Of a DNA stretch of 64,000 nucleotides, positions 10,553 to 26,674 are shown piece by piece; positions within the stretch are counted from its first letter, which is position 1, and every line of letters starts with the position of its first letter. The notes under the pieces were generated by a model that worked only from the letters and a program-made list of their open reading frames with translations, ran no database searches and had not been told where the DNA came from. Origin of the DNA: Escherichia phage phiWec186; sequence record LC739535.1; one strand, given 5' to 3'. The translations under genes were made by a program, and so were the position numbers.

Positions 10553-12367
10553 ATGCATAATTTATATCAGGACGTATTTTCTTTTTTGGATAAAACTTGT
10601 GACACATATACACGAGAGAACGCAAACAAACCCTCTCACCTCGTTAACACACATAGGGACTTACTGGCGGGGATTTTAAGTAAGCACATGGCAATGACTC
10701 AGATATTACCAAAGAACCTCGCAGAATGGCATACAGAAGGTTTTGGACATATCCATGATCTTGATTATCTGTTGTCTCCTCTTACGAATTGTTGTCTGGT
10801 AAACTACCAAGATATGCTGGAGAATGGCTTTAAAATCGGTGCTGCATATATTGAGAAACCTAAGTCCATTGGTGTAGCCACCACAGTGTTGACGCAAATC
10901 ATCCAGGCTGTTGCTTCAAGCCAGTATGGGGGACAAACTTGTGCTCATATTGATCAGGGGTTAAGTCAGTATGTTGAAGCTACCTACCTTAAGAATTTGA
11001 GAGAAACAGAACTACGTTACGGATACCCAGCCTGTAACGAAGCTTTAGCAGCAACAGATAAGGCTGTATATGATGCTATGCAGACATTGCTGTACCAGGT
11101 GAATACACTGATGAGCGTCAATGGACAATCTCCTTTCATCACTATCAGTATGGGATTAGATACAACAGTTTTTGGGAGAATGATCACTAAGAACTATCTT
11201 AAGGTACACAGTGAAGGGTTAGGGAAAGATCATGTCACACCTGTGTTCCCTAAAGTTGTGTTCTTCCTGGAGGAAGGTGTTAACATGGCAACTGAAGATC
11301 CTAATTACGATCTGAAAAAACAAGCTTTAGAGTGTTGTGCAGATCGAATCTATCCTGACTTCATTTCTGTGCCTCTTAACAAGGAAGTGACAGGCTCTAC
11401 GAAAGGAAATGTTACCAGTATGGGGTGCCGTTCGTTCCTGTCTTACTACACTACAGAACAGGGAGAGAAGTATGATGGACGTTTTAATTTAGGAGTTGTG
11501 TCAATAAACTTACCATTAATTGCAGCTAAAGCAAAAACAGAAGGATATTGTTTCTCTGACCTACTTGATGAACATATGCGTCTGGCTTACGATGCTCATA
11601 TGCTTCGGGTGGAACGCCTACGTCATACACGCGCATCAGAGAACCCTATCCTGTTTATGGAAGGGGCTTTAGCACGTCTCAATGCTGACGATGAGATTGG
11701 AGTTTTGTTTGAGGGTGGGTATGCTTCAATCAGTATTGGGTATGTAGGATTGTCCGAAGCTTTGGAGATCTTATACTCTGAAGAAGCGGATAAGAAAGAG
11801 ATGGGCAAAGCTATTCTGCAATACATGAAAGACACTTGTGCAGAGTTTAAAGAGTTGTCTAATCTGCCTTTCAGTTTGTATGGCACTCCTGCGGAATCCT
11901 TGTGCTACAAGTTTGCCACAGCTTTAAATAAAAATTATCCTAATCTGCATGTACGGGATTACCTGACCAACTCGTTCCATCAACCTGTTTGGGAGGTTAC
12001 AAATCCTTTTGAGAAGTGGGACTACGAAACAGGTTTTGCTCAAATCAGTAATGGCGGGAATATTAGTTATGTAGAAACTCCCAACCTGAAGAACAACTTG
12101 GAAGCTTTAGAAGCTTTGGTCGATTATGCTTATGAGCGCATCCATTACTTTGGCATCAATCAACCAGTGGATCAATGTTTCAAATGCAACTTTCATGGGG
12201 AGTTTAAAGCTACAGCAAAAGGTTTTGAATGCCCTTCGTGCGGGAATAATGAAGAAGAAACTATCTCCGTTATTCGTCGTGTTTCCGGTTATCTGTCTGC
12301 CCCTAACTCGCGCCCTTACAACAAAGGGAAAATGCAGGAAGTGTTACAAAGGGAGAAACATCTTTGA
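10553..12367 (+). CDS. nrdD: anaerobic ribonucleoside-triphosphate reductase (class III)
   Basis: C-terminal glycyl-radical motif RRVSGYLS and Zn-ribbon CFKCNF...CPSCGN; about 600 aa like phage NrdD lacking the ATP cone. Confidence 0.85.
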   Translation: MHNLYQDVFSFLDKTCDTYTRENANKPSHLVNTHRDLLAGILSKHMAMTQILPKNLAEWHTEGFGHIHDLDYLLSPLTNCCLVNYQDMLENGFKIGAAYIEKPKSIGVATTVLTQIIQAVASSQYGGQTCAHIDQGLSQYVEATYLKNLRETELRYGYPACNEALAATDKAVYDAMQTLLYQVNTLMSVNGQSPFITISMGLDTTVFGRMITKNYLKVHSEGLGKDHVTPVFPKVVFFLEEGVNMATEDPNYDLKKQALECCADRIYPDFISVPLNKEVTGSTKGNVTSMGCRSFLSYYTTEQGEKYDGRFNLGVVSINLPLIAAKAKTEGYCFSDLLDEHMRLAYDAHMLRVERLRHTRASENPILFMEGALARLNADDEIGVLFEGGYASISIGYVGLSEALEILYSEEADKKEMGKAILQYMKDTCAEFKELSNLPFSLYGTPAESLCYKFATALNKNYPNLHVRDYLTNSFHQPVWEVTNPFEKWDYETGFAQISNGGNISYVETPNLKNNLEALEALVDYAYERIHYFGINQPVDQCFKCNFHGEFKATAKGFECPSCGNNEEETISVIRRVSGYLSAPNSRPYNKGKMQEVLQREKHL

Positions 12368-12834
12368 ATTGTTCAGGCTATGAAGCAACAGACATGCTTA
12401 ACGGAGAAGGGGTGAGATGCTCTCTATGGGTCAGTGGATGTAGCCACGGATGCAGAGGATGTTTCAATCAGAAAGCCTGGTCATACTCTTACGGCGCAGC
12501 TTTCACAGAAGCAGATGTAGAACGTGTGTTAGCAGATTTGGCACGACCTTTCATTAAAGGTGTAACAATCTTAGGGGGAGAACCTTTAGACCCACAGAAT
12601 ATTGATGAAGTTTATAAGTTGATACTCCGAATCAAGGAAGTGTACGGGGAAGATAAGGATGTGATGGTGTATACAGGATATTTGTTTGAAGACATTCCTT
12701 CCCACATCAAGAATGTTGTGGATACAATCATGGATGGTAAATATGATTTAAATCAACCAACAGCAAAGCCATTCAGAGGTTCTGATAATCAGAGATTATG
12801 GAACAAGAAGAATGGTATTTGGCAAGCAGATTAA
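12364..12834 (+). CDS. nrdG: anaerobic RNR activating enzyme (radical SAM)
   Basis: NGEGVRCSLWVSGCSHGCRGC (CxxxCxxC); N-terminus aligns with E. coli NrdG if the TTG at 12364 is used. Confidence 0.8.
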   Translation: MNCSGYEATDMLNGEGVRCSLWVSGCSHGCRGCFNQKAWSYSYGAAFTEADVERVLADLARPFIKGVTILGGEPLDPQNIDEVYKLILRIKEVYGEDKDVMVYTGYLFEDIPSHIKNVVDTIMDGKYDLNQPTAKPFRGSDNQRLWNKKNGIWQAD

Positions 12835-13051: not shown

Positions 13052-13654
13052 ATGCAACAACTGATCGTTAATATGCCTCGCACTGGTAATGAAGTTTTTG
13101 GCTCACCAGTAGACAAAGTTTGGAAAGCACACTTTCATCTGACCTTAGCCGAGGTAAGTAGTAAAGAGCTTATGCGAGCAGCAAAGATTATCGGTGCAAA
13201 ATGCACAACTATCGATCTACATCGGGACACGCAATCACAGCGCGATCGTATGTTAACTAAGTATCAGGGTGGCATTGACACAGGCTTAATGTTGGAATGT
13301 GTGGCAAAGTTAAAAGCGGCTGGCTTCAAAGTGTTACGCTATAAACTGGAACAAATGTTCAAGGACGTAGAACACGTAATGCAGATGAACCTAAGCAAAG
13401 AACATTACGGAGAAGTACACATCAAGACTCCTGCCTCTATGCCGGAGATTGATACTGGCTTCTTCCGTATCTCTTCTAATGCCGAAGAGGTGGATTATCG
13501 TTTCTATAATGCCCGTCTGTATACCGAAGAAGATAAGTTGCAGTTCAAGAAAGCTTATGATATGCTTCTGGCAAATGATGTTGAAATAAAGGGCTACCAT
13601 GTAGAACAAGTGGTAGTAGACAGTAATCTTAACTTAGACGCATGGTGGGCTTAA
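13052..13654 (+). CDS. hypothetical protein
   Basis: SD AAGGAG upstream. Confidence 0.55.
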   Translation: MQQLIVNMPRTGNEVFGSPVDKVWKAHFHLTLAEVSSKELMRAAKIIGAKCTTIDLHRDTQSQRDRMLTKYQGGIDTGLMLECVAKLKAAGFKVLRYKLEQMFKDVEHVMQMNLSKEHYGEVHIKTPASMPEIDTGFFRISSNAEEVDYRFYNARLYTEEDKLQFKKAYDMLLANDVEIKGYHVEQVVVDSNLNLDAWWA

Positions 13655-13655
13655 T

Positions 13656-14312
13656 ATGACTATTAAACATATCTCTTTTGATGTATGGAACACACTGATC
13701 ACAGCAAACCCCAATTACGCAGATATGCGAGCGTGGACTATCGCAAAATACGGGGATATTACGGAAGTAGAAGCAAGAGCAGCTTACAAGAAGATCAAAA
13801 AGGAACTGGACAATGCCGCACTTCAGGGAACAGCCGAGTGTGCAGCATATGCCTGGGAAAGACTTGGTTACGAACTTGGGATAACACCTTTGAAGTCTGC
13901 AAAGCTTCGTTTCGAGTGTGAACAGTGGTTCCTTAAGTTTCCACCGCATGTGGCTGTGGATTTACCGATGCACTTGCTGTATCTTTCGGGGCGTTATGAT
14001 TTGAGCATCAAGAGTAATACCAACTTCATATCAGGAGATATCTTGCGACGTGCCTGTAAGTTTGAAGGTTGGAATTGTTTTGAGTTCACACATTTCTCGG
14101 ATGAAGCTTTACTTTGTAAACCAGATCCGCGATTCTTTGCTCGCACGATCACTTATTCTCCAATCCCTCTGGTAGGGCAGGAAGTGTTGCACGTAGGTGA
14201 TAGTGAAGAATATGATGGAAAATGTGTTGACGTAGGATTTAACTTCTGTCATATTAAGAACCCTAACGACTTGTTAGATAAACTTGCTAAAGGAGAACTT
14301 GTTAATGCGTAA
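13656..14312 (+). CDS. HAD-superfamily hydrolase (putative phosphatase)
   Basis: Motif I-like ISFDVWNTL and motif IV-like HVGDSEEYD. Confidence 0.5.
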   Translation: MTIKHISFDVWNTLITANPNYADMRAWTIAKYGDITEVEARAAYKKIKKELDNAALQGTAECAAYAWERLGYELGITPLKSAKLRFECEQWFLKFPPHVAVDLPMHLLYLSGRYDLSIKSNTNFISGDILRRACKFEGWNCFEFTHFSDEALLCKPDPRFFARTITYSPIPLVGQEVLHVGDSEEYDGKCVDVGFNFCHIKNPNDLLDKLAKGELVNA

Positions 14313-15132
14313 TCAAACTCAAATCTTTGCTCACAAATTCGATAGTCTGGAAACTGCTCGCTTTGATATTCGTGACTATTCCAAACTGAAGTTTGGCAGC
14401 AACCAGGCGGCTCGCCGTATGGGGCGAACGCTGGCAGTCTCTTTCTATGACTTGGTAGTCAAGAATATGCCGGAAGAAGAATTTGTGGTGATTCCTTCAC
14501 CTTACAACCATGTGCATAACGCAGCAACCATGATGACCAATCAGTTCATCAACTTCCTGAACCTGTTGCTGTTGAATCACAAGGGTAGCCGTGCAGTAGA
14601 ATTGGATACGATCCACCGCAAGGTGAGTTACATTAACGATTATGGTTTCCTGGACAAAGCGAGCCGTAAGAAACTGATTGATGGTGACACCTTCTATTGC
14701 AACAAAGATTTTTGGGGCAACAAGAAGCTGATCTTCATTGATGATGTGAACATCACGGGAACTCATGAAGACAAACTGATTGAGATCCTGGATGAAAATA
14801 AAGTTACGAATGATGTTTACTTCCTGTATTTTGCGAAGTATACTGGTAATCAAGCAGACACAGAGGCTAAACTGAACTTCAACCATATTAACACGACAGA
14901 TGCTTTTGTTAAGATGATCAATGAAGAATGTGATGCGCAGTGTCTTGTTCGTCCTATCAAGTATTTGATGGGACAAACACCGGAAGAGTTTAAAATCATT
15001 CTTTCCCGTTTGCCGCACCAATACGTAGAAGCACTGTTCTTTGGGTGTCTTGGGGAAGGTTATGATAAGATCGAGAAGTATTCTGAAAACTTCGTCTTCC
15101 TGAACCGTTACTTTAACCAGCATATCCTGTAA
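14305..15132 (+). CDS. phosphoribosyltransferase (PRT fold)
   Basis: PRPP-binding signature KKLIFIDDVNITGT; ATG at 14305 after AAGGAG. Confidence 0.55.
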   Translation: MRNQTQIFAHKFDSLETARFDIRDYSKLKFGSNQAARRMGRTLAVSFYDLVVKNMPEEEFVVIPSPYNHVHNAATMMTNQFINFLNLLLLNHKGSRAVELDTIHRKVSYINDYGFLDKASRKKLIDGDTFYCNKDFWGNKKLIFIDDVNITGTHEDKLIEILDENKVTNDVYFLYFAKYTGNQADTEAKLNFNHINTTDAFVKMINEECDAQCLVRPIKYLMGQTPEEFKIILSRLPHQYVEALFFGCLGEGYDKIEKYSENFVFLNRYFNQHIL

Positions 15133-15141
15133 GGAGGGAAA

Positions 15142-15624
15142 ATGTTGAAGGTTGTTACTGGGAATCTGATCGATGCCGCCAAGAATGGGAAAGTGAACGT
15201 TATAGCCCACTGTTGTAACTGTATGTGTAATATGGGTGCAGGGATTGCTCCGCAAATTAAACGAGCATTTCCTTATGCATATGCAGCCGACTTGGATACA
15301 GCGGCAGGTGATCAAAGCAAACTGGGTTCTTTTAGTTTAGGGGTGCCGGAGGAAGTGTCTGACCCACTGGTTTATAACCTGTACGGACAGTACCGTTACG
15401 GGTATAACGGTAAAGGTCGTCAGTTGGACTATGATGCCCTGTACGATGCTCTTGAGGCTATGGCAAAGGATCTCCACAAATGGGTGAACACATCTGCCAA
15501 ACATAAGATTGGTCTACCTATGATCGGAGCAGGGTTGGCAGGAGGTAATTGGGCTATCATTGAAGTGATGATTGAAGAAACTTTAGTAAAAACAGGTCAC
15601 GATGTGACTATTTATAAACTTTAA
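15142..15624 (+). CDS. macro-domain protein (ADP-ribose binding/processing)
   Basis: GNLIDAAKNGKVNVIAHCCNC..GAGIA and IGLPMIGAGLAGG resemble macro-domain motifs. Confidence 0.55.
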   Translation: MLKVVTGNLIDAAKNGKVNVIAHCCNCMCNMGAGIAPQIKRAFPYAYAADLDTAAGDQSKLGSFSLGVPEEVSDPLVYNLYGQYRYGYNGKGRQLDYDALYDALEAMAKDLHKWVNTSAKHKIGLPMIGAGLAGGNWAIIEVMIEETLVKTGHDVTIYKL

Positions 15625-15637
15625 GAGGAGAAATAAT

Positions 15638-15859
15638 ATGGGTGTTGTTGCAGGTGTTCTGGCAGTAGTTATCGTGTTTGTTCTGGCTTTCCTGATTAGT
15701 ATGATTCCAGCATGGCTTCTGCTGCTGGCTTATAACTACGTTGTTGAAATGATGGGTCACACAGATATCACTGTTCCTATCACCTTCTGGACTGTGGTGT
15801 GTGTGGCATTTATCATGGCTGTACTACGTGGGATCTTTTCCTCAAGTTCTTCAAAATAA
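15638..15859 (+). CDS. small membrane protein
   Basis: Two hydrophobic helices; SD AGAGGAG. Confidence 0.5.
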   Translation: MGVVAGVLAVVIVFVLAFLISMIPAWLLLLAYNYVVEMMGHTDITVPITFWTVVCVAFIMAVLRGIFSSSSSK

Positions 15860-15862
15860 GTG

Positions 15863-15890
15863 TTGACAAGGTTTTAGAATAGAGTAAGAT
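15863..15890 (+). promoter_or_regulatory. sigma70-like promoter TTGACA-N16-TAAGAT
   Basis: gtgTTGACAag context as at 1035 and 20909; followed by a gcgggga/tccccgc hairpin in the 5' UTR of the TerC gene. Confidence 0.5.
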
Positions 15891-15940
15891 GTATCACATG
15901 AGGCGGGGAGTGGTTCCCCGCAAAGAGAAAGGAGAAAATA

Positions 15941-16915
15941 ATGCAACTTGGTTTTCCAATCATTGATGTAGTGGTGTTGGTAGGTATTCTTGTTCTGTCG
16001 ATCTGTGTTGACTTTTTTGGTCATCGTGAAAACAAGGAGATCTCTTTCAAATCCGCTGTGGCTTGGTCAGTATTCTGGATTGGTGTGTCTTTAGCCTACT
16101 ACGGTTTTGTATACTTCCAGCACGGCGCAGCTTTTGCAAACTTATTCTTGAGTGGATATGTGTTAGAGAAGTCGCTCTCGGTAGATAACTTGGTAGTGTT
16201 TGTAGCAGTGTTCTCCAGTTTCGGGATTAAGAGCACACACTTACAACACAAAATTCTACTCTGGGGTATTGCAGGTGCGATTGTCTTCCGAGGTGTGTTT
16301 GTAGCAGCAGGGACTTATCTGCTAAGTTTGGGTTGGTTTGTTAATATCATCTTCGGTGCTGTTATCCTGTTCTGTGCTTTTAAAATGGTAATGGCTGGCG
16401 GTGATGATGAAGAAGTGGATTACTCTAAACATTGGGCGACACGCTTTGTACGTAAACTATTCCCAGTATCGGATCAGATGGATGGCGAGAAGTTCTTCAC
16501 AATTAAGAATGGTGTTCGTGTAGCAACTCCGGCTCTGGTTTGTGTGTTCGTGATGGAAATGGTGGATGTGATCTTTGCAGTAGACTCGGTTCCGGCTGTA
16601 ATTGCAGTGACACAAGAACCACTGCTTGTATTCTCTTCGATGCTCTGTGCAATCTTAGGCTTACGTGCTCTGTTCTTTGTTCTTAGTGTGGCCCTGAAGT
16701 ATCTGGTTCACCTGGAAAAAGCAGTTATCGCAGTCCTGGTGTTTGTTGGTGTGAAACTGATGTATCACCCGTTTGCAGAAACGCTGCACGCAAAAGTGAG
16801 CTTCCTGCCAGCGCATATTGACCCGACGATCAGCATGTATATCGTGCTTGGTACTCTGACCCTGGGCGTGATTGCAAGTTTCATCTTCCCTGAAAAAGAA
16901 GAAGCTACCGCTTAA
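15941..16915 (+). CDS. TerC-family integral membrane protein
   Basis: Multiple TM helices and the TerC-type signature GYVLEKSLSVDNLVVF. Confidence 0.75.
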   Translation: MQLGFPIIDVVVLVGILVLSICVDFFGHRENKEISFKSAVAWSVFWIGVSLAYYGFVYFQHGAAFANLFLSGYVLEKSLSVDNLVVFVAVFSSFGIKSTHLQHKILLWGIAGAIVFRGVFVAAGTYLLSLGWFVNIIFGAVILFCAFKMVMAGGDDEEVDYSKHWATRFVRKLFPVSDQMDGEKFFTIKNGVRVATPALVCVFVMEMVDVIFAVDSVPAVIAVTQEPLLVFSSMLCAILGLRALFFVLSVALKYLVHLEKAVIAVLVFVGVKLMYHPFAETLHAKVSFLPAHIDPTISMYIVLGTLTLGVIASFIFPEKEEATA

Positions 16916-16922
16916 TACCAAT

Positions 16923-16947
16923 GAACCTCCTTCGGGAGGTTTCTTAC
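16923..16947 (+). terminator. hairpin, possible weak terminator
   Basis: gaacctcc-ttcg-ggaggttc stem-loop, weak U-tract. Confidence 0.35.
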
Positions 16948-16963
16948 TAACATAGGAGGAATT

Positions 16964-17314
16964 ATGTCTGTATATTTTGACGATGTTCAGGAATATGTTT
17001 GGTGTCTTTCTGGCACAATCTCGGAAGTAGAAGCTGCGATTCAAGAGGTTTTTCCTTACGCTTATGTAGAAGTTAAACAGGCACCTCCTATGGATCTTCC
17101 CCCTAATGTGGAAGCTTGTTGTGGTTCCGGCGAGGGTACAGTCATCCCAGTTCTGCGTTACGAACTACAAGCAGCAAGTGCAAATGTCGATGATATTATT
17201 ACAGAAATTAAGGCGTATGGTTTCTGGACCTCTCCTTACGCTAAATGGGATAACTCTGACACTTGGGATTTATTCTTCTGGGATAATGAGACAGATGACG
17301 AGGTATTTCTGTAA
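16964..17314 (+). CDS. hypothetical protein
   Basis: SD AGGAGGA. Confidence 0.55.
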   Translation: MSVYFDDVQEYVWCLSGTISEVEAAIQEVFPYAYVEVKQAPPMDLPPNVEACCGSGEGTVIPVLRYELQAASANVDDIITEIKAYGFWTSPYAKWDNSDTWDLFFWDNETDDEVFL

Positions 17315-17556
17315 TGAAAGTTGTTTGGGTTGTGTTTGAAAATATTTGTTTTGCAATAGGTTTGTTCGTCATACTTTTTGTGTTGACAAACGTGATCAAT
17401 GGTAGTAAAGTATCCCTATACAAAGACGGGGAGCAGATTTACTGCTTCTCTGGAGATTTCAAACACACCTGTGTTAATATGCAGAAAGAAGAAACTCCAC
17501 ACCAGAAGTCAAGAGAAGATTTTGATTGGTGGTCACTACTTAATAACTTAAGATGA
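17314..17556 (+). CDS. small membrane protein
   Basis: TAATG overlap; one TM helix. Confidence 0.45.
   Translation: MKVVWVVFENICFAIGLFVILFVLTNVINGSKVSLYKDGEQIYCFSGDFKHTCVNMQKEETPHQKSREDFDWWSLLNNLR
17383..17411 (+). promoter_or_regulatory. candidate internal promoter TTGACA-N17-TAAAGT
   Basis: tgtgTTGACAaa context inside the 17314 ORF. Confidence 0.3.
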
Positions 17557-17565
17557 GGAGAAAAT

Positions 17566-18435
17566 ATGAAAAATATTCAGCCATTACCTGTAGTTGGGGA
17601 TTTGTATTTCTTATCTGGTACGGGTTATTCCCCAGAAGCATTAGAAGTTAACAAGAACGTCTTCCGAGTGAAAGAAATAAGAGAAGAATGTAATGAAATT
17701 GTTTTCGAAGGTATTACTAATGGAGTTCTTCAGTATGCAGAGATGCGTAGCTGCTTCCAGCAACCTTTCCGCCCGTTGGCAGACGAGTATAAGATTGCGG
17801 TAAATATTGATGATCTTAAAAAAGAACCAGGGTTCGAAGCGTTCTCTACTTTTATGGAAGATACGTATGTGGATGTAAAGAGATCTAACCTTTTCGCGGG
17901 GGATAATTTCCCTCACTTTGTGTCAGAGAAAAGTGATGGTTTTTCCGACTACGTGGATGCTGTAAACTATGATGTTTCTGAATTGACAGGAGAGCAGGAT
18001 TATCTTCTGCTGTCTCCTAAAGATTTCATGCGCGTAATGTATGCCGTAGCCGAACAGAAAAAGAAGAAAGAAAAGCTTGTAGCCAAAAAAGTTAAAAAGG
18101 TTAAAGGTAAACGTGCCAAAGGTGTTCCAGAACGTAAGCGCACCGTAAATAAGGCGACAGTCTTCTTTACCAGCGGTGAGCAATATACGATCAAAGGTTT
18201 TAAAGAAGTGGGTTACACTGCTGGCGGAAACCTTCTGTTCTTCACAGTTGCAGAAGAAGGAGAAACTTTTATCCGTTTTTCCAATATGTGGGAAATGTCT
18301 GTAGAAGATATTAAAAGTGTTGTTGTTTTAGGTGTACATAAGAGTTTCATTATTAATCAAATCTCTGATTTCAGTGCACACTTGACAGCACCAGATTTCG
18401 AAACTACCACAACAAGCTTTAACTTCAAGGTGTAA
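17566..18435 (+). CDS. hypothetical protein with Lys-rich segment
   Basis: SD GAGGAGAA; internal KKKKEKLVAKKVKKVKGKRAK stretch. Confidence 0.55.
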   Translation: MKNIQPLPVVGDLYFLSGTGYSPEALEVNKNVFRVKEIREECNEIVFEGITNGVLQYAEMRSCFQQPFRPLADEYKIAVNIDDLKKEPGFEAFSTFMEDTYVDVKRSNLFAGDNFPHFVSEKSDGFSDYVDAVNYDVSELTGEQDYLLLSPKDFMRVMYAVAEQKKKKEKLVAKKVKKVKGKRAKGVPERKRTVNKATVFFTSGEQYTIKGFKEVGYTAGGNLLFFTVAEEGETFIRFSNMWEMSVEDIKSVVVLGVHKSFIINQISDFSAHLTAPDFETTTTSFNFKV

Positions 18436-18438
18436 TGC

Positions 18439-19029
18439 ATGAATACCGAGAGAGATTTAAAACTCTTGTGGTGGGAAGTGATGCAGGAGATCAAGGAGGA
18501 TTTCCCTGTTTACTACAACATGCTACGTGAAGCTGGATATACGGCTTGCGTTAGGAACAAAGTGAATAACTCTTTCGGTTGGTGCAACTACCGAGAAAAG
18601 ATTGTTGTTGTGAATTGGCACTTGCATAAAAACTCCACAAGGGATATGATAGTGGACACAATGAAGCATGAGATTGCTCATGCGATCGACGGTTGTATGG
18701 GTAAGTTCAGTCGTCATGGACCACACTGGCAAAAGCTGGCAGCAGAGTTGGGAGCCAATCCTAAAGCTACTTCCAAAGAACCGTTAAACCATGAGTACAA
18801 ATATGTTCTTGTTTTGGTGGACAGATTTGCCACAAGATGTGTTAGAGGGTATAATCGTAAACCTAACCGTATGACTCCAGGGAAACAACCACATATTTGG
18901 TTGAAGAGTGATAAAGAGGGGACAGAAGGAAAAATATGGTTGTATAAATGGGAAGATTGGGTTAAAGTAGCTAAAGAATATGGTGTTTCACCTTACACAA
19001 GAGAAATAGAAGAGGAGAATGAAGAATGA
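18439..19029 (+). CDS. SprT-like zinc metallopeptidase (putative)
   Basis: HExxH motif MKHEIAHAIDG. Confidence 0.45.
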   Translation: MNTERDLKLLWWEVMQEIKEDFPVYYNMLREAGYTACVRNKVNNSFGWCNYREKIVVVNWHLHKNSTRDMIVDTMKHEIAHAIDGCMGKFSRHGPHWQKLAAELGANPKATSKEPLNHEYKYVLVLVDRFATRCVRGYNRKPNRMTPGKQPHIWLKSDKEGTEGKIWLYKWEDWVKVAKEYGVSPYTREIEEENEE

Positions 19030-20138
19030 CAAGTCCATTTTTGAAAGCGGCAACTGGTGGTCAAAAGAAATCTGAAACGAGTGTACTGACTGCTACTACA
19101 GATGCAAGCAAGTCCGTGTTCGCTCCGAGTGTCCTGGATGCAAGTCCAGTGTATGCTCCAGCAGCGCCAAAAGCTGTGCCTACCTTGCCAACAATGTCTC
19201 GTAAAGAGATTGAAGAAGTGGGTGCAGAAGCAGGTTTAACTCTCCGCACGCTGAATGCCGAAGTGTTAAAGCACCAACGTAGCAATCAAGGCGATGAAAT
19301 GAGCCAACGCCTTACCGCGCTGATTAAACAAGCCAAACAGCTTGATCCTGCTTCTATCAAGCAGAGCAAAGGTGTAGGCAAACTTATCAAGAAACTGATG
19401 GGTATGAAGGAAGATCTGTTCGGGGAATTCGATAATGTGAACAACCGTATCGAAGAACTCGTTAAGAATCTTCAGATGGATATTCGTAAAGAAGAAGATT
19501 CTCTGGTGTACCTGGAGAAGCTGCACCAGGCGATCGGACAGTACGCCGCAAGCCTGAATCGTGATATGGAATTACTCACAGCAGCTTATGAGCAAGAACT
19601 GGCTAACTTTGAAGCTACGCCAGAAGATGACGTAGAAGCCCGTCAACGCGTCCGTGACACGCTTGATCTTCTGGAGATACGTATTGCTGACTTGAAGGCA
19701 TTACGCTTGCTGTGCGTGCAAATGGGGCCGCGTGTATTGGGTATGCAGAAAGTATCTGCCAGCCTCATGCGTTCTGCTCGTAATATTGTGAACAATGTGA
19801 TTCCTGCTTACTCGGCAAACTTCTCGATGTATATTGAAAGTCTGCGCCAGAAGAAAGCAGCAGAAACACAGAACAACGTTCTGGACGAGTTCAACCTGGC
19901 AATCAAACTGGGTAGCGATCTTGCCACACAGAACCAGATCGAAGCAGCAGCACTGGCTAACCGCCAAGTGTTGGATATCGAAACTCTGCGTCACGATCAG
20001 GAGAACTTGGTTAAGATGTTGGAAGAAACTAACCGCATCAATACGGAAGCCCGTGCTGCCCGTGTTGATTACATCAATGAAGTTCAATCTCTCGAAGATG
20101 GGATGGTTGACGCTGTTAAGAAGGGGTTGGGTAAATGA
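19026..20138 (+). CDS. TelA-like (toxic anion resistance family) protein
   Basis: About 370 aa helical protein; segments resemble TelA/KlaB as I recall them; SD GAGGAG. Confidence 0.5.
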   Translation: MTSPFLKAATGGQKKSETSVLTATTDASKSVFAPSVLDASPVYAPAAPKAVPTLPTMSRKEIEEVGAEAGLTLRTLNAEVLKHQRSNQGDEMSQRLTALIKQAKQLDPASIKQSKGVGKLIKKLMGMKEDLFGEFDNVNNRIEELVKNLQMDIRKEEDSLVYLEKLHQAIGQYAASLNRDMELLTAAYEQELANFEATPEDDVEARQRVRDTLDLLEIRIADLKALRLLCVQMGPRVLGMQKVSASLMRSARNIVNNVIPAYSANFSMYIESLRQKKAAETQNNVLDEFNLAIKLGSDLATQNQIEAAALANRQVLDIETLRHDQENLVKMLEETNRINTEARAARVDYINEVQSLEDGMVDAVKKGLGK

Positions 20139-20341
20139 GAATCCGTGTATACATGCTTGACGAACAAGCTGGAGAAATAGGTGTTCGTTATGATGAAGAG
20201 AAACGCTTTGCCCCAATGACCCAGCTACAAACTCCAGATATTTTTGCAGCTTGTCGTGACGGATATATCTATGAAGGTTGTCGCAACTTTGGCAGATTTA
20301 AAGTTATTTCTGATGTGGAATTTAACGAGGAGGAAGAATGA
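20135..20341 (+). CDS. hypothetical protein
   Basis: ATGA-coupled. Confidence 0.5.
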   Translation: MRIRVYMLDEQAGEIGVRYDEEKRFAPMTQLQTPDIFAACRDGYIYEGCRNFGRFKVISDVEFNEEEE

Positions 20342-20508
20342 AAACATTGCGTGTGAACATCGAAACTACCTGGCGAGATTTCGAGGTTGTTGATATTGAG
20401 ATTGAAGACGATATGTCTCAAGAAGATATCGAAGATCTTGCAAAAGAAACATTTCAGGACTATTGTAATTACGGGTTCCATATTTTAGGGGAGGAAGAAG
20501 ATGTTTAA
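20338..20508 (+). CDS. hypothetical small acidic protein
   Basis: 56 aa ORF not in the track; SD GAGGAGGAAGA. Confidence 0.45.
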   Translation: MKTLRVNIETTWRDFEVVDIEIEDDMSQEDIEDLAKETFQDYCNYGFHILGEEEDV

Positions 20509-20899
20509 ACACACAAACGTAAACTTGAAATTAACAGTAACAGATCCGACTCTTTTCATCAATCTTACAAGCGGGGAAGTTTATGAAGTTATCACAGACG
20601 AGGATGGTTCTTGCTTCCTTAAAGGTTATTATCTCTGTGAATCTGATGAGTTGGTATCTATTATCACCTTGGGAGAATACGAAGAACCAGGCTTCCGTGT
20701 GGAGGTTGTTAAGAATCCCGATATTATCCAGTTGACTCGCCAAGAACTGATCACAATCATGGAAGACGCTTTTATTGATGGATGGAAGACTCAAAACTAT
20801 GATTGGAGTGGCCCAGAAGACTTCCTGCGTCTTCATAAAGAGTATGACGATTCCAGCGAAACTACTATTGCCATTGATAGTATTAAGGCTGGTGTGTAA
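20501..20899 (+). CDS. hypothetical protein
   Basis: SD GGGGAGGAAGA. Confidence 0.55.
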   Translation: MFKHTNVNLKLTVTDPTLFINLTSGEVYEVITDEDGSCFLKGYYLCESDELVSIITLGEYEEPGFRVEVVKNPDIIQLTRQELITIMEDAFIDGWKTQNYDWSGPEDFLRLHKEYDDSSETTIAIDSIKAGV

Positions 20900-20908
20900 T
20901 GAAAAGTG

Positions 20909-20937
20909 TTGACAACAATCTCCATAAGATGGATAAT
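20909..20937 (+). promoter_or_regulatory. sigma70-like promoter TTGACA-N17-GATAAT
   Basis: gtgTTGACAac context in the intergenic gap. Confidence 0.55.
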
Positions 20938-20968
20938 ACCTCCATCGAAAAAACGGGAGGAGATAAGA

Positions 20969-21241
20969 ATGTTTGATTTTAAAATAAAGGATTCAAAACC
21001 CCAAGATGTAGCAGTTCGTTTCGAAGAGTTGGGGATTGGTGAAACTTTCATGTATTATTCAGCATATGAAGAAAATGGTTTGGATACATTTGCAAACTTA
21101 GTATTCCTTAAAAGCGGCGGCGCGACTGCTGTTTGTTTGAATAGTTCATCAAGAGGGAGTGTCCATACCGTATCCCCAGATGTGCCGATGGTTGCAGTTC
21201 GTTTAGTAGTTACTGATATTACACTTACAGAGGAGAAATAA
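20969..21241 (+). CDS. hypothetical protein (paralog of 22263..22544)
   Basis: ATG at 20969 after GGGAGGAG; homologous to the 22263 product. Confidence 0.55.
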   Translation: MFDFKIKDSKPQDVAVRFEELGIGETFMYYSAYEENGLDTFANLVFLKSGGATAVCLNSSSRGSVHTVSPDVPMVAVRLVVTDITLTEEK

Positions 21242-21242
21242 T

Positions 21243-22043
21243 ATGTCCAATAAAATTAGCCTGAAGAAACGCCAAGACACCCTGACCATTTCACTGAAGA
21301 AAAAGAAAATTGTCAACGAAGATCAAAAGATCGTTCTGCGTGTTGCAAGCGCACTGGATATCTCCGGCAGCATGTCCAGCCTGTATCGTAACGGTACTGT
21401 AAGTGAGTTTGTTGGTAAGCTGCTTCCGTTTGGTATGCTGTTCGATGATAACGCGCAGATCGATATGTGGGCTTTCAACAATAGCTCTCGTGAAATCACT
21501 CCAGCAACTGCTGATGTGTATGATGATTACGTTGGTAAATGCATTAATGGTCGTGTAACAGTCCAGGGTGGCACAAGCTATGCACCTGTTATGCAGGATA
21601 TTTACGATTCCTACTTCGGTAGCACCACTAAATATGAAACTGTAGAAACCCCTGTAACCAAAGAAGTTCCTAAGAAAGGTTTCTTCAACCGTTTACTGGG
21701 TAAAACCGAAACTGTAGAAGCTATTGTAGAAAAAACTGTAGCCGTTGCTGTGCCTGGTGTAGACGTTACTCCGGCAGTTGTGTTCTTCCAGACAGATGGA
21801 GAGAACGATGATCCGAGCCGTGTACTCTCCGTACTGGAAAAGAACAAGGGTAAACCTATTTACTGGTTCATGGTGGGTGTTGGTAGTGCTCGTTTCTCTT
21901 TCCTGAAAGATTTGGCTGAAGCTTACGACAACGTAGCATTCATTGGTCTGAACGATCTTTCCTTGACAGACGAGCAGCTTTACGATAAACTCTTGTCTGA
22001 AGAGTTCGGTGAGTGGGTTGAAAAGGTTGGTGCTAAGAAATGA
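21243..22043 (+). CDS. von Willebrand factor A (vWA) domain protein, TerY-like
   Basis: MIDAS motif LDISGSM, then GGTSYAPV and VFFQTDGENDD; N-terminus shares the SxKISLKK...ISLKK start with the TerD gene. Confidence 0.65.
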   Translation: MSNKISLKKRQDTLTISLKKKKIVNEDQKIVLRVASALDISGSMSSLYRNGTVSEFVGKLLPFGMLFDDNAQIDMWAFNNSSREITPATADVYDDYVGKCINGRVTVQGGTSYAPVMQDIYDSYFGSTTKYETVETPVTKEVPKKGFFNRLLGKTETVEAIVEKTVAVAVPGVDVTPAVVFFQTDGENDDPSRVLSVLEKNKGKPIYWFMVGVGSARFSFLKDLAEAYDNVAFIGLNDLSLTDEQLYDKLLSEEFGEWVEKVGAKK

Positions 22044-22282
22044 TCGACACGCTGATCTCTCAAACGGTGTTGCAAGTGATGCGTGAGAGAGAAGCTTTCA
22101 TCATGAAGGGTCTTAAAGATTATTTTGGGACTCTTTCTTTGGAAGAACTCAAACTACGCGTTGAGATCCATGCGTATCCTTCTTATGAAGAATGGATTGA
22201 CAAAGCAAATAAAGCTGTTATAATGCGTATCAACAAACCAGAAATCACGACAGGAGGACAAGATGTTAAATTTCGCCATTAA
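22040..22282 (+). CDS. hypothetical protein
   Basis: ATGA-coupled ORF; weak SD. Confidence 0.4.
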   Translation: MIDTLISQTVLQVMREREAFIMKGLKDYFGTLSLEELKLRVEIHAYPSYEEWIDKANKAVIMRINKPEITTGGQDVKFRH

Positions 22283-22544
22283 GAAAGATAGCAAACCAAA
22301 GATTCAGACTTGTCGCATTGCAAATCTTACACATGGTGATTTGTTTGTTCTGAAAAGTGCCTACGACGAAGACGGTCTTGATCCAGAAGCAGTCGTCGTT
22401 TATATGGTGTTGCGGCGAGATGAAGACACCAAGCACCCATACAATGCGGTAGAGATGAATTACAATGCAATGTTGTGCTCAATACACTATACGGCAGAGT
22501 TGGTGCAGGTAGAGTTAACAGTTAACGAAATTAAACTTAAATAA
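22263..22544 (+). CDS. hypothetical protein (paralog of 20969..21241)
   Basis: SD AGGAGGA; sequence similarity to 20969..21241. Confidence 0.55.
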   Translation: MLNFAIKKDSKPKIQTCRIANLTHGDLFVLKSAYDEDGLDPEAVVVYMVLRRDEDTKHPYNAVEMNYNAMLCSIHYTAELVQVELTVNEIKLK

Positions 22545-22559
22545 TAGAGGAGACACATA

Positions 22560-23162
22560 ATGAGCGATAAAATTTCCCTGAAAAAAGGTTCCACCGAGAA
22601 GATTTCCCTGAAGAAAGTTGCTCCGGCACTGAAAGAACTGCGTCTGGAGTTCTCCTGGAAATCAAACTCTAAACTGGATCTGGATGTAAGCGCACTTGTA
22701 TGCCGACACAACGCCTCTGGCAACCCTGAAATGCTGTCTGCACGTCATCTGGTTTGTTATGCTAACAAGTTTGATCCAGAACGTTCTGTATTCGCAGGTG
22801 ATGATGTTCGTGACGGTACTGGTCAAATGGAACAAATCGATGTAACCTTGGCTAAGATCTCCGATAAAGCCGAAGAGATTGCTTTTGTCCTAACTATTGA
22901 TGATGAAACGGGTCAGAAACGTCTGGGTCACGCTACTGAAGGTATGCTGAAGATCTTTGATGCCGAGCGTAACGTTGAGATCCTGGACTTCGACTTCTTG
23001 GCTCCTGAAGTGGCTGGTAATACCATCTGCCACGTAGCTTCCCTGGTTCGTGAAGACGGTGAATGGAAACTGAAAGCTTACGGTGTTGGTAAAGCAGGTA
23101 TGGATATCTGTGATGTGGTTATGGCCTTCGGTGGTCAGAAAGAATGGTACGATTGCCCGTAA
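22560..23162 (+). CDS. TerD-domain protein
   Basis: TerD-like layout: N-terminal ISLKKG..ISLKK, DLDVSALV, GDDVRDGTG, FDFLAPE, C-terminal WKLKAYG. Confidence 0.7.
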   Translation: MSDKISLKKGSTEKISLKKVAPALKELRLEFSWKSNSKLDLDVSALVCRHNASGNPEMLSARHLVCYANKFDPERSVFAGDDVRDGTGQMEQIDVTLAKISDKAEEIAFVLTIDDETGQKRLGHATEGMLKIFDAERNVEILDFDFLAPEVAGNTICHVASLVREDGEWKLKAYGVGKAGMDICDVVMAFGGQKEWYDCP

Positions 23163-23259: not shown

Positions 23260-23781
23260 TTGCTGATAAAAAACTTTGTAACAGTTGCGTTACTATCCTT
23301 AACTGCTTTTACATTTACACCTGTCACGGCAACCGCCGAAGCTGCAAACGTAAAGACTGCTAAAGTAGTTCACAAATGTGCAAAGCAAGATACTAAAGAA
23401 AATCTCTTGGCTTGTGCAATTTACGCTGAAAGTCGTAATCAGGGTAAACGTGGGATGTATGCTGTAGGTAATGTAGTATTGAACAGGAAAGGTGATGATT
23501 ACTTCCCTGATAATATTAAAGATATTCTCTTCCAACGAGGACAATTCTCTTACAGGAAGAAGTTTAACGTTACCGAAGCAGAGCGATGGAAAGAAGCTAA
23601 AGCTATCGCAAAACGACTTATATACCTGGATACACACTTCCCTACACTTAGAGAAGCCCAGGACATGACAAAAGGTGCGACATTTTTTAAGAAAGTAAAA
23701 ACCCGTGCACACTGGACAAAAGATATGGTCTTAGTGTATCGTTATAAAGAACATCAGTTCTACCTACCGACAAGGAGCTAA
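23260..23781 (+). CDS. SleB/CwlJ-family cell-wall hydrolase with signal peptide (candidate endolysin)
   Basis: LACAIYAESRNQGKRGMYAVGNVVLNRKGDDYFPDNIKDILFQRGQFSY matches the cell-wall hydrolase family. TTG start at 23260 after AAGGAGG gives a signal peptide LIKNFVTVALLSLTAFTFTPVTATAEA. Confidence 0.6.
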   Translation: MLIKNFVTVALLSLTAFTFTPVTATAEAANVKTAKVVHKCAKQDTKENLLACAIYAESRNQGKRGMYAVGNVVLNRKGDDYFPDNIKDILFQRGQFSYRKKFNVTEAERWKEAKAIAKRLIYLDTHFPTLREAQDMTKGATFFKKVKTRAHWTKDMVLVYRYKEHQFYLPTRS

Positions 23782-24478: not shown

Positions 24479-25042
24479 ATGATTTATTATATTACCCCCT
24501 ATCTAAGTGGAGATATCGGCAAAGCAATTAACGATGCTATTGCCGTTCTTCACGAAGATAGTTGGGTCTGTTTACGTGATATCGATACCATGTTCTTACT
24601 GCCAGACCAACCTTCTATGTTGGAAGATTTGGTAGCAACCAATCCACCGTTTGATGTGATCGGTGCGTCTTGTAATCGTTTAGGTAGTGGTTATCAACTT
24701 CTCGGTGGAAAGATTGATGATGATCCTAACATTCTGAACCATATTTCTCATGCCAAAGTTGCTCGTGATTACTATGGTGATGAAATTGAAGAAGTCCCAC
24801 AAGGCACTCCCTTAGCAGGTTTCTTTCTATTGTTCAGGAAATCATTATGGAAGGAGATCCCTTTTGAAGAACGTACCATCCAGTTCGATATAATCTTCTC
24901 AAACACTTTACATGAACGAGGAAAAAGGTTAGGATTGATGCGTGGGATGTATCTCTTCCATATTTACCGTTTAGGTCAAAAAGATCCTCAACGGGCAATA
25001 TCACACCTTATGCATTGTCATGATCACCGGAAAACTATTTAG
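24479..25042 (+). CDS. putative glycosyltransferase (GT-A-like)
   Basis: N-terminal YYITPY...CLRDIDTMF arrangement; weak. Confidence 0.35.
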   Translation: MIYYITPYLSGDIGKAINDAIAVLHEDSWVCLRDIDTMFLLPDQPSMLEDLVATNPPFDVIGASCNRLGSGYQLLGGKIDDDPNILNHISHAKVARDYYGDEIEEVPQGTPLAGFFLLFRKSLWKEIPFEERTIQFDIIFSNTLHERGKRLGLMRGMYLFHIYRLGQKDPQRAISHLMHCHDHRKTI

Positions 25043-25050
25043 GGGGAAAG

Positions 25051-25734
25051 ATGGAAAATATTAAAATTGGGGTTGGCGTTATCACTGTAGGTGTTCGTCC
25101 ACTTAAAGATTACATGGTTGCACCTGGTGTAGACTTCAAAGTGTTTCACGATCCCGATCGTAAAGGTGTAGCTTATGCTCGCAACCAATTAATGAAACAG
25201 TTCTACGATGAAGGTTTTGACTACTGGTTCATTTTTGACGATGATTGCTATCCGGTTAAACGTGGCTGGGAAGAATACTTCGTTAACCAGGCTGTCGAGA
25301 ATGGTTGGGACTTCTTCGGTATGCCAGAATACTTCAAAGATACTGTGATAGGTTGTTCTGGAGAAGTAGTCTTCTGGGAATTGGCTATGTGTCAGTTTGC
25401 AATGTATTCTCGTGCAACTGTTGAGACGATGGGTTATTTCCGTCCTTATACACACGGATATGGTTTCGAAGATGCAGAATGGACTAATCGTCTGAAAGCT
25501 TCAGGTTTGAATAAAGGACTCCAGGGCGTACCTTGTCCGATGCGCATTATGGCGTACATTCACCCCGACGATGTTTTCGGTGATAACCCTTTACCTTTTG
25601 CTAATCTGACAAAAGAAGAGAAAGAATCAGCAATCGGGATCAATTGGGAAGAATACAAACTGTCTTTGGAGGATATTAATAATGGCAAAACACACATCTC
25701 TTTTGAAGAGGCTGAAGGATATGGCGTTAAATAA
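25051..25734 (+). CDS. putative glycosyltransferase (GT-A fold)
   Basis: WFIFDDDCYP acidic motif after a beta-strand-rich N-terminus. Confidence 0.45.
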   Translation: MENIKIGVGVITVGVRPLKDYMVAPGVDFKVFHDPDRKGVAYARNQLMKQFYDEGFDYWFIFDDDCYPVKRGWEEYFVNQAVENGWDFFGMPEYFKDTVIGCSGEVVFWELAMCQFAMYSRATVETMGYFRPYTHGYGFEDAEWTNRLKASGLNKGLQGVPCPMRIMAYIHPDDVFGDNPLPFANLTKEEKESAIGINWEEYKLSLEDINNGKTHISFEEAEGYGVK

Positions 25735-26668
25735 GAAACCAACCCTACTGTGTGACAACAAATTCAACAGTGGTTGTGATTACCATCGCATTGTCATGCC
25801 ATTTTCTAACACAGAGATCAAGCCACGTACTGATGTACTGGTCTTTAACCGCATCTTCTCGAAGGGTGCTGATGAAGTAGCCAAACTTAAGCGCCAAGGT
25901 GTTAAGATTGTTGTAGATTTGGATGATTTCTATCAATTGAATCCAGAACACTACCTGGCGCATCTGTACGCGCCAAACACCCGCACAATCGTGGAAATGG
26001 TTAAAATAGCAGATATTGTCATTGTCACAACCGAATACCTGGCGTACAAAGTTCGTCACTTAAACTCTAACGTTGTTGTGATCCGAAATGCTCTACCGTT
26101 TGATGATGGTCAATTCACTCTCTCGAATGATCGTACTTCGGGTACGCCTATCATTTGGGCTGGAGGTGCGAGTCATGAACCGGATTTACGTTTGCTTTCA
26201 AACACTTTTGATGATAGTTTATTGTCTATCGCAGGGTATGAAGCGAGCAGCACAGTGACAGGGCAAGAGTGGGTTAAGATCCGCCGTAGTTTGCCTAATG
26301 CGCAGTATAAACCTGCTGTAGATTCTTTGAATCATTATATGTCTGCATACGATGGTCATGCTATGGCTGTAGCTCCGTTAGTAGATAACGACTTCAACCA
26401 TTGCAAGAGCAACCTGAAAGTATTAGAAGCTGGTGCTAAAGGCATTCCAATCGTTTGTTCTAAGGTATTACCTTACTACAACCCGATCGATGCCCGTGCA
26501 GTAACCTTCGCAGATAGCAAAGCAGAGTGGCACTATGAAGTTGTAAAACTACTTCGTAATCCAAACTACCGCGAAGATCGTGGACTGTTCTTGGCTGAAC
26601 ATGTTCGTACTCACTACAACTTGAAGGATGCAAACGAATTGCGTCGTCAAGTGATCGAAAGTCTGTAG
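25721..26668 (+). CDS. putative glycosyltransferase (GT-B-like), tandem paralog 1
   Basis: Homologous to the next gene (CDYHR..., IWAGGASHEPDL, KSNLKVLEAGAKGIPIVCS); start could also be the ATG at 25682. Confidence 0.5.
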   Translation: MALNKKPTLLCDNKFNSGCDYHRIVMPFSNTEIKPRTDVLVFNRIFSKGADEVAKLKRQGVKIVVDLDDFYQLNPEHYLAHLYAPNTRTIVEMVKIADIVIVTTEYLAYKVRHLNSNVVVIRNALPFDDGQFTLSNDRTSGTPIIWAGGASHEPDLRLLSNTFDDSLLSIAGYEASSTVTGQEWVKIRRSLPNAQYKPAVDSLNHYMSAYDGHAMAVAPLVDNDFNHCKSNLKVLEAGAKGIPIVCSKVLPYYNPIDARAVTFADSKAEWHYEVVKLLRNPNYREDRGLFLAEHVRTHYNLKDANELRRQVIESL

Positions 26669-26674
26669 GTGTTT

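Follow-up and report, generated by a model that had tools for sequence, protein, structure and literature searches.

Escherichia phage phiWec186 carries a group of genes related to the bacterial Ter (tellurite-resistance-type) systems, which we analysed in a stretch of 64,000 nucleotides of sequence record LC739535.1 (one strand, 5' to 3'), referred to below as the window. A sequence-only reading, made without database searches, had proposed that seven co-directional genes within about 9.5 kb encode HAD, phosphoribosyltransferase (PRTase), macro-domain, TerC, TelA, vWA and TerD proteins and that a virulent phage carries in them a minimal Ter-like system, PRTase/HAD arm included, and had named the failure of profile searches for TerC, TerD, TelA or vWA as the outcome that would speak against it. 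All seven proteins, these four families included, were recovered by profile hidden Markov models (HMMs), all seven genes lie on the + strand inside 9.5 kb, and the proposal is upheld apart from the inclusion of Macro. The genes are the following.

13656-14312, + strand: HAD-superfamily hydrolase, first gene of the enzymatic pair (Pfam PF00702, NCBIfam, PDB 2om6, motifs I-IV)
14305-15132, + strand: PRTase_3, a ComF-like type I phosphoribosyltransferase, second gene of the pair (PF15610, E 7e-41)
15142-15624, + strand: Macro, a DarG/TARG1-like macro-domain protein (Pfam Macro, 23.0 bits; cut-off 22)
15941-16915, + strand: TerC/Alx-family integral membrane protein (Pfam PF03741, E 1e-39)
19026-20138, + strand: TelA-family helical protein (PF05816, E 2e-34, 313 of 332 profile positions covered)
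21243-22043, + strand: vWA protein of the TerF C-terminal type with a full metal ion-dependent adhesion site, MIDAS (PF10138, vWA-TerF-like, E 3e-37)
22560-23162, + strand: TerD-domain protein (PF02342, E 2e-29; PDB 3ibz/2kxt, E ~1e-14)

The first protein of the enzymatic pair belongs to the HAD superfamily. It scores 22.3 bits against PF00702, under the gathering score of 26.4, and also matches NCBIfam HAD-IA models; its family profile matches PDB 2om6 (E 5e-19), and motifs II (SNTNF), III (KP) and IV (HVGDxxxxD) are conserved. Motif I reads SFDVWNT, where the nucleophilic Asp, D9, is retained and the Asp two positions further on (Asp+2) is replaced by Trp. The pattern h-S-F-D-x-W-x-T-L is found in every one of the 22 homologues, from phages and bacteria, whose motif-I region is intact. 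It is present as well in 2om6, an uncharacterised structure that carries FDVWNTL and so shares D-x-W-x-T with the Ter-linked HADs of phiWec186 and loci L001-L023. The phosphatase form of motif I, DxDxT/V with both nucleophile and Asp+2, is present neither in this protein nor in the 22 homologues. The Asp+2 general acid/base is a defining feature of HAD phosphatases; the sequence-only reading had assumed an ordinary phosphatase. The protein is at most a putative phosphatase, and the Ter-linked HAD family with DxWxT may, judging by its motifs, differ from ordinary phosphatases.

The start of the PRTase_3 gene overlaps the stop of the HAD gene by 8 nt. HAD lies directly upstream of PRTase_3 in every locus that we fetched, and the start/stop overlap, which recurs in the loci inspected, suggests translational coupling. 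The loop that binds phosphoribosyl pyrophosphate (PRPP) reads DDVNITGTHE, with its Asp-Asp at residues 146-147, and DDVxITGTHE is invariant among the homologues. The AlphaFold2 model (predicted local distance difference test, pLDDT, 90.9) has the type I PRTase fold with an extra C-terminal helical domain; its nearest solved folds are HGXPRT/HGPRT, which are 6-oxopurine PRTases, and ComF, with PyrR also matched, at template modelling scores (TM-scores) of just 0.3-0.45. A sequence search for a closely related solved structure of PRTase_3 returned none. The PRPP loop and the fold together place the protein among the type I phosphoribosyltransferases; the corresponding PADLOC match is marginal (E 0.0017).

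TerC, TelA, vWA and TerD make up a membrane-proximal tetrad. TerC falls into the Alx/TerC subfamily TIGR03718 of NCBIfam ("TerC/Alx family metal homeostasis membrane protein") with 324 bits against a cut-off of 246, carries EKSLSVDNLVVF, and is at most 48% identical to plasmid-borne TerC. The MIDAS residues D39-x-S41-x-S43, T111 and D185 of the vWA protein are all present and conserved among its homologues, so that both this site and the PRPP motif are as the sequence-only reading had described them. The canonical acidic Ca2+ loop of TerD, as known from TerD structures, is GDN-TG-GDGDDE. In the phage protein the loop is degenerate (GDDVRD--GTGQME, with GTGQME in place of GDGDDE); GDGDDE or AGDDE is kept in bacterial and other phage TerDs, and the loop is eroded in this subfamily. 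TerD is a single-copy gene, the TerD family HMM having found no further TerD-domain open reading frame (ORF) in the window at E <= 10, and Pfam searches gave no TerB match among the ORFs of the cluster (E <= 1 for the ten small ORFs), which agrees with the earlier statement that TerB, TerZ and TerA are missing. The ligand-binding protein TerB is frequent, though not universal, in Ter systems. With TerD, TerC, TelA, a MIDAS-bearing vWA, a linked PRTase and HAD, and the recurrent co-clustering described below, the locus belongs to the Ter systems in the broad sense.

The macro domain of the remaining protein belongs to the DarG/TARG1 clade. It matches PDB 5e3b (SCO6735; E 6e-13), a TARG1 structure (E ~7e-7), the PADLOC DarG model across the whole DarG macro domain (E 3e-12) and the NCBIfam DarG model (E 2e-11), in the last case with 43.7 bits against a cut-off of 250, since the macro part alone aligns. 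In contrast to DarG, the protein is a stand-alone domain of 160 aa without the C-terminal DarG domain, so the full DarG architecture is not present, and no toxin gene that could be a DarT partner is adjacent. Macro is a candidate, predicted from sequence, for reversal of ADP-ribosylation, for example that by a DarT-type defence.

Distribution of the Ter families in phages and bacteria

The phage search set comprised 50,697 records, with the PRTase used as the probe for set membership; in the genome scan a single PRTase sequence gave no match, while an alignment query succeeded. PRTase_3 was matched in 156 records, TerD in 148 and TelA in 246, and the organism tallies of the PRTase_3 and TerD matches are near-equal. 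TerD is found in 6 of the 7 independent phage lineages that carry PRTase_3, which, given how few of the records contain TerD at all, puts the grouping far beyond chance.

The closest PRTase relatives outside the subfamily Stephanstirmvirinae, to which phiWec186 belongs, share ~50% identity with it and come from phage-like metagenome contigs. On two such contigs, L007 and L008, TelA, vWA-TerF-like, TerC, HAD, PRTase_3 and TerD occupy 7-8 kb in differing orders, and a third, L006, has five of the six families; a 389-aa ORF of L006 considered as TelA is not significantly TelA-like and was discarded. An ordered block TelA-vWA-TerC-TerD is present in Otagovirus phiPsa374 and in Caulobacter phage CcrBL9, and in Caulobacter/Brevundimonas phages the HAD-PRTase pair is situated at a locus separate from the tetrad. 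Two Bacteroidetes loci bear out the link to bacterial Ter loci that the sequence-only reading had drawn: in L022, HAD-PRTase_3 stands beside three TerD genes, three vWA/TerY genes, a PP2C and a kinase, with a P-type cation ATPase following the pair, and in L023 it stands beside two TerD genes and TerC. HAD-PRTase_3 is also carried by chromosomes and plasmids of Rhizobium, Sinorhizobium and Ensifer (L010-L021, including pRL10, L020), with no TerD, TerC, TelA or vWA within the 10-kb flanks; at L014 (9061-11587), the sole annotated rhizobial locus, a ClpP-like gene comes after the pair and ordinary metabolic genes lie around it.

Several other genes were noted at these loci. A PRPP synthetase gene adjoins TerD in L008 (13389-14351), genes for cREC and Acb3 are near the set in L007 (14905-15279 and 17932-18846), and an NMNAT/Nudix gene comes after the pair in a Rhizobium phage (L004, 6283-6855). 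Directly downstream of the pair in Xanthomonas jumbo phage XaC1 is XaC1_252 (L003, 12941-14527), a DUF2828/DUF7788 protein of 528 aa. It may stand in for the TerF-type vWA in that phage, DUF2828 being related to vWA domains.

Macro behaves differently from these families. Its homologues were found in 2,965 phage records, T4-like, FelixO1-like and rV5-like phages among them, compared with 148-246 records for the Ter genes, and it is therefore not Ter-specific. It directly follows the PRTase throughout the subfamily, and lies 3-8 kb from Ter genes in phiPsa374 (L025, 1696-2202), L007 (17148-17591) and XaC1 (L003, 20293-20751), that is, in the neighbourhood of Ter genes in 4 of the ~10 lineages inspected. 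This proximity is only suggestive, since accessory genes are concentrated in that one arm of the genome. The flanks of L004, L005, L006, L008, L026 and L027 gave no Macro homologue. The sequence-only reading had counted Macro as an integral part of the module; its membership in the Ter set is not supported, and we regard it as an interleaved neighbour.

The core consists of six families, HAD, PRTase_3, TerC, TelA, vWA and TerD, and the set is best read as two sub-modules, the enzymatic pair and the membrane tetrad, which are often though not always joined. The separation of core from accessory genes follows from phage phi92, which retains the six families and lacks three further genes of the present locus, namely those for a 200-aa protein, a SprT-like protein and a second phrog_11278 protein.

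Accessory genes, promoters and surroundings

Further features of the locus are listed in the order of their coordinates.

13052-13654, + strand: 200-aa protein directly upstream of HAD (conserved motifs, predicted structure)
15863-15890, + strand: sigma-70-like promoter TTGACA-16-TAAGAT in the 81-nt gap ahead of TerC (consensus scan)
15903-15921, + strand: 5' hairpin between this promoter and TerC (sequence)
16924-16941, + strand: terminator-like hairpin AACCTCC-TTCG-GGAGGTT, then TTCTTACT, after TerC (sequence)
18439-19029, + strand: SprT-like Zn-metallopeptidase with HEIAH (Pfam SprT-like, E 2e-9)
18827-18855, + strand: promoter-like site, 11/12, upstream of TelA (consensus scan)
20909-20937, + strand: promoter-like site, 11/12, upstream of phrog_11278 copy a and vWA (consensus scan)
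20969-21241, + strand: phrog_11278 copy a, small protein directly upstream of vWA (PHROGs)
22197-22224, + strand: perfect extended -10 sigma-70 consensus TTGACA-16-TG-TATAAT, 12/12 (consensus scan)
22263-22544, + strand: phrog_11278 copy b, directly upstream of TerD (PHROGs, BLASTP)

The SprT-like gene, whose stop overlaps the TelA start, lies inside the cluster and was missed by the sequence-only reading, the inventory of which was correct for the seven families that it named. L008 has a SprT-like gene 8 kb away from its Ter set; the gene of phiWec186 is accessory, outside the core. The two phrog_11278 copies are paralogous (34% identity, BLASTP E 2e-10), and each lies directly 5' of a Ter gene with a strong sigma-70-like promoter ahead. 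phi92 has copy a without copy b; copy a is possibly an accessory gene and copy b a lineage-specific one. The idea that these proteins are TerD fragments was rejected, as Pfam gives it no support. The 200-aa protein has the invariant residues H27-x-H29-x-T31, E121-x-H123-x-K125 and H183-x-E185 and a confident model with a tandem ferredoxin-like fold, for which no functional match was found; PADLOC gives full-length matches to "AbiEi" (E 7e-13). We considered whether it could be a 2H phosphoesterase pairing with Macro and rejected this, because it has a single HxT instead of two HxT/S motifs, the tandem ferredoxin-like fold instead of a LigT-like one, and no 2H matches. The gene is confined to phAPEC8/Wec-type phages and is found neither at the phi92 locus nor at any locus outside Stephanstirmvirinae. 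Macro, the SprT-like gene and the 200-aa gene are all neighbours of the core and not part of it.

Four promoter-like sites stand just upstream of TerC, TelA, vWA (via phrog_11278 copy a) and TerD (via copy b), and all seven sites scoring at least 10/12 between 10 and 25 kb, these four among them, are on the + strand. A promoter is annotated at the site equivalent to that before TerC in phages phAPEC8 and ASO2A, and a terminator is annotated in ASO2A at the equivalent of the hairpin after TerC; the TerC unit is possibly monocistronic and closed by this terminator-like hairpin. The promoter at 22197-22224 lies within an ORF (22040-22282), 5' of phrog_11278 copy b and TerD, and after the TerD stop there is a hairpin GGGGGA-GAAA-TCCCCC, which in ASO2A is an annotated terminator. 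The promoter and hairpin layout at TerC fits, and does not prove, early expression by the host RNA polymerase. A yybP-ykoY Mn2+ riboswitch ahead of terC was considered and rejected, since neither this element nor any other credible Rfam match was found before the gene and the leader consists of the promoter-like site and the hairpin only.

The 9.5-kb region is 100% identical in Escherichia phages phiWec181 and phiWec179, 94% identical in phiWec188/190 and ~80% identical in phAPEC8-type phages. All of these are virulent myoviruses of the Stephanstirmvirinae, and the genus "Wecvirus" has been proposed for phiWec-type phages in a 2025 paper that does not mention Ter genes (PMC12695924). TerC is the only Ter gene named in the GenBank record of phiWec186. 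Phages EmilieFrey and JohannJBalmer are close relatives with the same gene set and E. coli K-12 as the recorded host. Some related records carry host labels that seem doubtful: OR584014 ("Pseudomonas phage PsgM04F") and OP562383 ("Acinetobacter phage ABPW7") are 94% and 79% identical in DNA to the coliphage region, and MG065645, MG065689 and MG065656 ("Campylobacter phage") give protein scores equal to those of Justusliebigvirus coliphages. Just upstream of the cluster, at 10553-12834 on the + strand, are the anaerobic ribonucleotide reductase genes nrdD-nrdG, which are also present in phAPEC8; they are missing from the equivalent site in the 94%-identical PsgM04F/Wec188-type genomes and thus constitute an indel polymorphism adjoining the Ter cluster. 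Downstream of TerD follow a gene for a SleB-like cell-wall hydrolase (23260-23781, + strand), labelled endolysin in relatives, and then four glycosyltransferase genes (24479-27600, + strand). All of these are envelope-related, which places the Ter set in an envelope-directed neighbourhood.

Proposed role and alternative explanations

The role that we favour, and consider an even call, is one of protection or exclusion at the membrane, exerted through TerC, TelA, vWA and TerD with the enzymatic pair supplying a small-molecule ligand. We commit to it on account of the phenotypes of plasmid ter loci, proposals made for other phages, the six-family core and its modularity, and the promoter layout. 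Plasmid ter loci confer phage inhibition and colicin resistance besides tellurite resistance (Whelan et al. 1995, as cited in PMC8386662 and PMC8115787). Iyer et al. (2021) read Ter systems as nucleoside-signal synthesis combined with ligand sensors and membrane components and proposed that phages use them against superinfecting phages (PMC7824862), and the authors of the ZCKP1 paper suggested likewise (PMC6141743).

We infer the following course of events. The Ter set would be expressed from host-type promoters early in infection. HAD and PRTase_3 would couple some base or other acceptor to PRPP and then process the product, yielding a nucleoside-like small molecule; the scheme in which the PRTase makes a nucleoside monophosphate (NMP) and the HAD dephosphorylates it is plausible. 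TerC, as an Alx-type metal/ion transporter, would assemble with TelA, the MIDAS-competent vWA and TerD at the inner membrane in a metal-dependent manner and alter both the ionic state and the envelope of the infected cell, which might thereby resist superinfecting phages, pore-forming colicins and envelope insults until lysis.

A number of results weigh against this proposal. The step from NMP to nucleoside is less secure than usually stated because the HAD is without Asp+2, and two Asp of the acidic Ca2+ loop are missing from TerD. The pair stands alone in Rhizobium phages and on rhizobial replicons, and phiPsa374 has the tetrad without the pair (no PRTase_3 match in the phage search), so pair and tetrad can occur apart and their coupling is not obligatory. 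About 14 unrelated ORFs are interleaved among the Ter-region genes. Promoter-like sites total 37 compared with 30.8 +/- 5.4 in shuffled sequences and are thus not above chance. The phenotypes of plasmid R478 stem from a terZABCDE-type operon with TerB and TerD paralogues, which are lacking here, and a literature search found no experiment on any phage Ter gene.

A more specific form of the proposal holds that the set is a self-sufficient minimal Ter machine, in which the ribosylated molecule made by the pair gates a TerC-TelA-vWA-TerD complex and confers immunity to superinfection or to membrane-targeting abortive-infection effectors; we put it forward tentatively, as possible but on the doubtful side. 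If it were true, a genetically tractable lytic coliphage could reveal the biochemical output and mechanism of Ter. Ter loci are widespread in pathogens, where resistance to tellurite, phages and colicins as well as fitness in the gut have been connected with them (PMC8115787, PMC12054061). The phage version, being Ter reduced to six families and having relatives with a K-12 host, would be a convenient model for the product of the PRTase/HAD arm and for exclusion.

The presence of an Alx-type transporter also invites an explanation by metal homeostasis, in which TerC exports Mn2+ or Ca2+/Zn2+, TerD, vWA and TelA are metal-binding regulators, and the metal content of the infected cell is adjusted to the needs of phage enzymes rather than used to keep rivals out. 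The TerC score above the TIGR03718 cut-off, the intact MIDAS of vWA, the ribonucleotide reductase genes adjoining the cluster and the P-type cation ATPase after the pair in L022 are all in line with this, as are the description of E. coli Alx as a Mn2+ exporter (PMC10197570) and the contribution of Klebsiella terC to zinc resistance (PMC12054061). However, the explanation does not account for the pair travelling with the set, no Mn riboswitch precedes terC, the acidic loop of TerD is eroded, and for export one transporter would be enough. We consider metal homeostasis unlikely as the purpose of the set.

The position of Macro directly after the PRTase, and near Ter genes in three other lineages (L025, L007 and L003), brings up counter-defence chemistry. 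HAD, PRTase and Macro would make or destroy a ribose-linked immune signal or its substrate, candidates being ADP-ribose derivatives, nucleotide second messengers, PRPP or a base, and the membrane proteins would be secondary. Acb3 and cREC near the L007 set, the PRPP synthetase by TerD in L008 and the NMNAT/Nudix genes in Rhizobium phages fit this picture. Nearly all of the Macro-bearing phage records are without Ter genes, though, the flanks of the six loci named above yielded no Macro, the PADLOC match of the PRTase is marginal, and TerC, TelA, vWA and TerD are left without a role, which makes this explanation quite improbable.

Literal resistance to tellurite or other xenobiotics, provided to the host by a classical auxiliary "resistance" set, is suggested by the family names, by a phage paper that treats TerD as a tellurite-resistance auxiliary gene (PMC11273794) and by the mention of xenobiotic resistance in pseudolysogeny in Iyer et al. 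(PMC7824862). We give it very little credence, as the host of a virulent phage does not survive to gain from it, tellurite is scarce in sewage and gut habitats, and the phage has neither TerB nor the TerZ/A/E paralogues of resistance operons. Finally, the genes could be unrelated accessory genes that lie together by accident and share no function; the interleaved ORFs, the several internal promoters and the separation of pair and tetrad in some lineages might point to this. Such a reading is strongly disfavoured by the fact that the same families, each present in <0.5% of phage records, are found together, in varying order, both in bacteria and in independent lineages of phages.

Comparison with known Ter systems

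By the broad definition of Anantharaman, Iyer and Aravind (2012; summarised in PMC7824862), a Ter system joins a PRTase/HAD arm to a hub of TerD, TerC, TelA and vWA. The bacterial ter loci (R478 IncHI2, E. coli O157 and Klebsiella terZABCDEF + terXYW; L022 and L023) share with the phage locus the linked TerC, TerD and vWA and the PRTase/HAD arm. Unlike them, the phage lacks TerB and the TerY-PP2C-kinase triad and encodes only a single TerD-domain protein. With respect to the terZABCDE(F) type in particular, the window contains neither several TerD paralogues (TerZ, A, D, E, F) nor the canonical TerD Ca2+ loop, and close sequence kinship to the plasmid genes is lacking. Recent capture from an enterobacterial ter locus was considered and rejected, because Klebsiella TerD is only a distant relative of the phage protein (E 6e-14), TerC is no closer to its plasmid counterparts than the identity given above, and tblastn with PRTase_3 gave no match on enterobacterial ter plasmids. 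E. coli Alx is of the same Alx/TerC subfamily, and the phage protein scores above the threshold of that subfamily, but the phage gene is without the yybP-ykoY riboswitch and stands among Ter partners.

Among phages, Iyer et al. described Ter systems that form a tight operon in jumbo phages (Acinetobacter phage ME3; Caulobacter phages), whereas here the genome is a non-jumbo one of ~150 kb and the genes are interleaved with others. The tetrad of phiPsa374 and CcrBL9 comprises the same four Pfam families in a contiguous, fixed order; in phiWec186, by contrast, TerC is displaced upstream with a promoter and hairpin of its own.

The nearest known systems are those of phi92, phAPEC8 and ZCKP1, which have the six families and Macro in the same order and at the same genomic position, with TerD 81-91%, TelA 78-91% and PRTase 65-79% identical to the proteins described here. 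phiWec186 differs from phi92 by the extra 200-aa, SprT-like and second phrog_11278 genes, and by nrdD-nrdG just upstream. The phi92 GenBank record, with annotation of the 2012 era, names five of the six genes: gp187 as hydrolase, gp186 as orotate PRTase, gp182 as tellurium resistance membrane protein, gp178 as toxic anion resistance and gp172 as stress protein. A RAST table of 2015 lists TerD and tellurite genes of phi92, although its "gp173 TerD" is actually the vWA-TerF-like protein. The ZCKP1 paper of 2018 reported four tellurite-related genes (PMC6141743), a description of phage Ter systems that include PRTase and HAD followed in 2021 (PMC7824862), and phage Ter genes have also been mentioned for phiKp34 (2021, PMC8386662) and XaC1 (2024, PMC11273794). 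The set, which the sequence-only reading had called unusual on a virulent phage, was thus already on record; it seems to be conserved throughout the Stephanstirmvirinae and is met again in further groups of phages.

With the genes annotated in phi92 and phage Ter systems discussed in print, the locus is modest as a discovery in itself. The literature search found no statement of the six-family core in shuffled loci, of the HAD with invariant DxWxT or of the rhizobial stand-alone pair, and these are refinements, not a new category. The phage Ter set is of an already known kind, of which phiWec186 is a further member.

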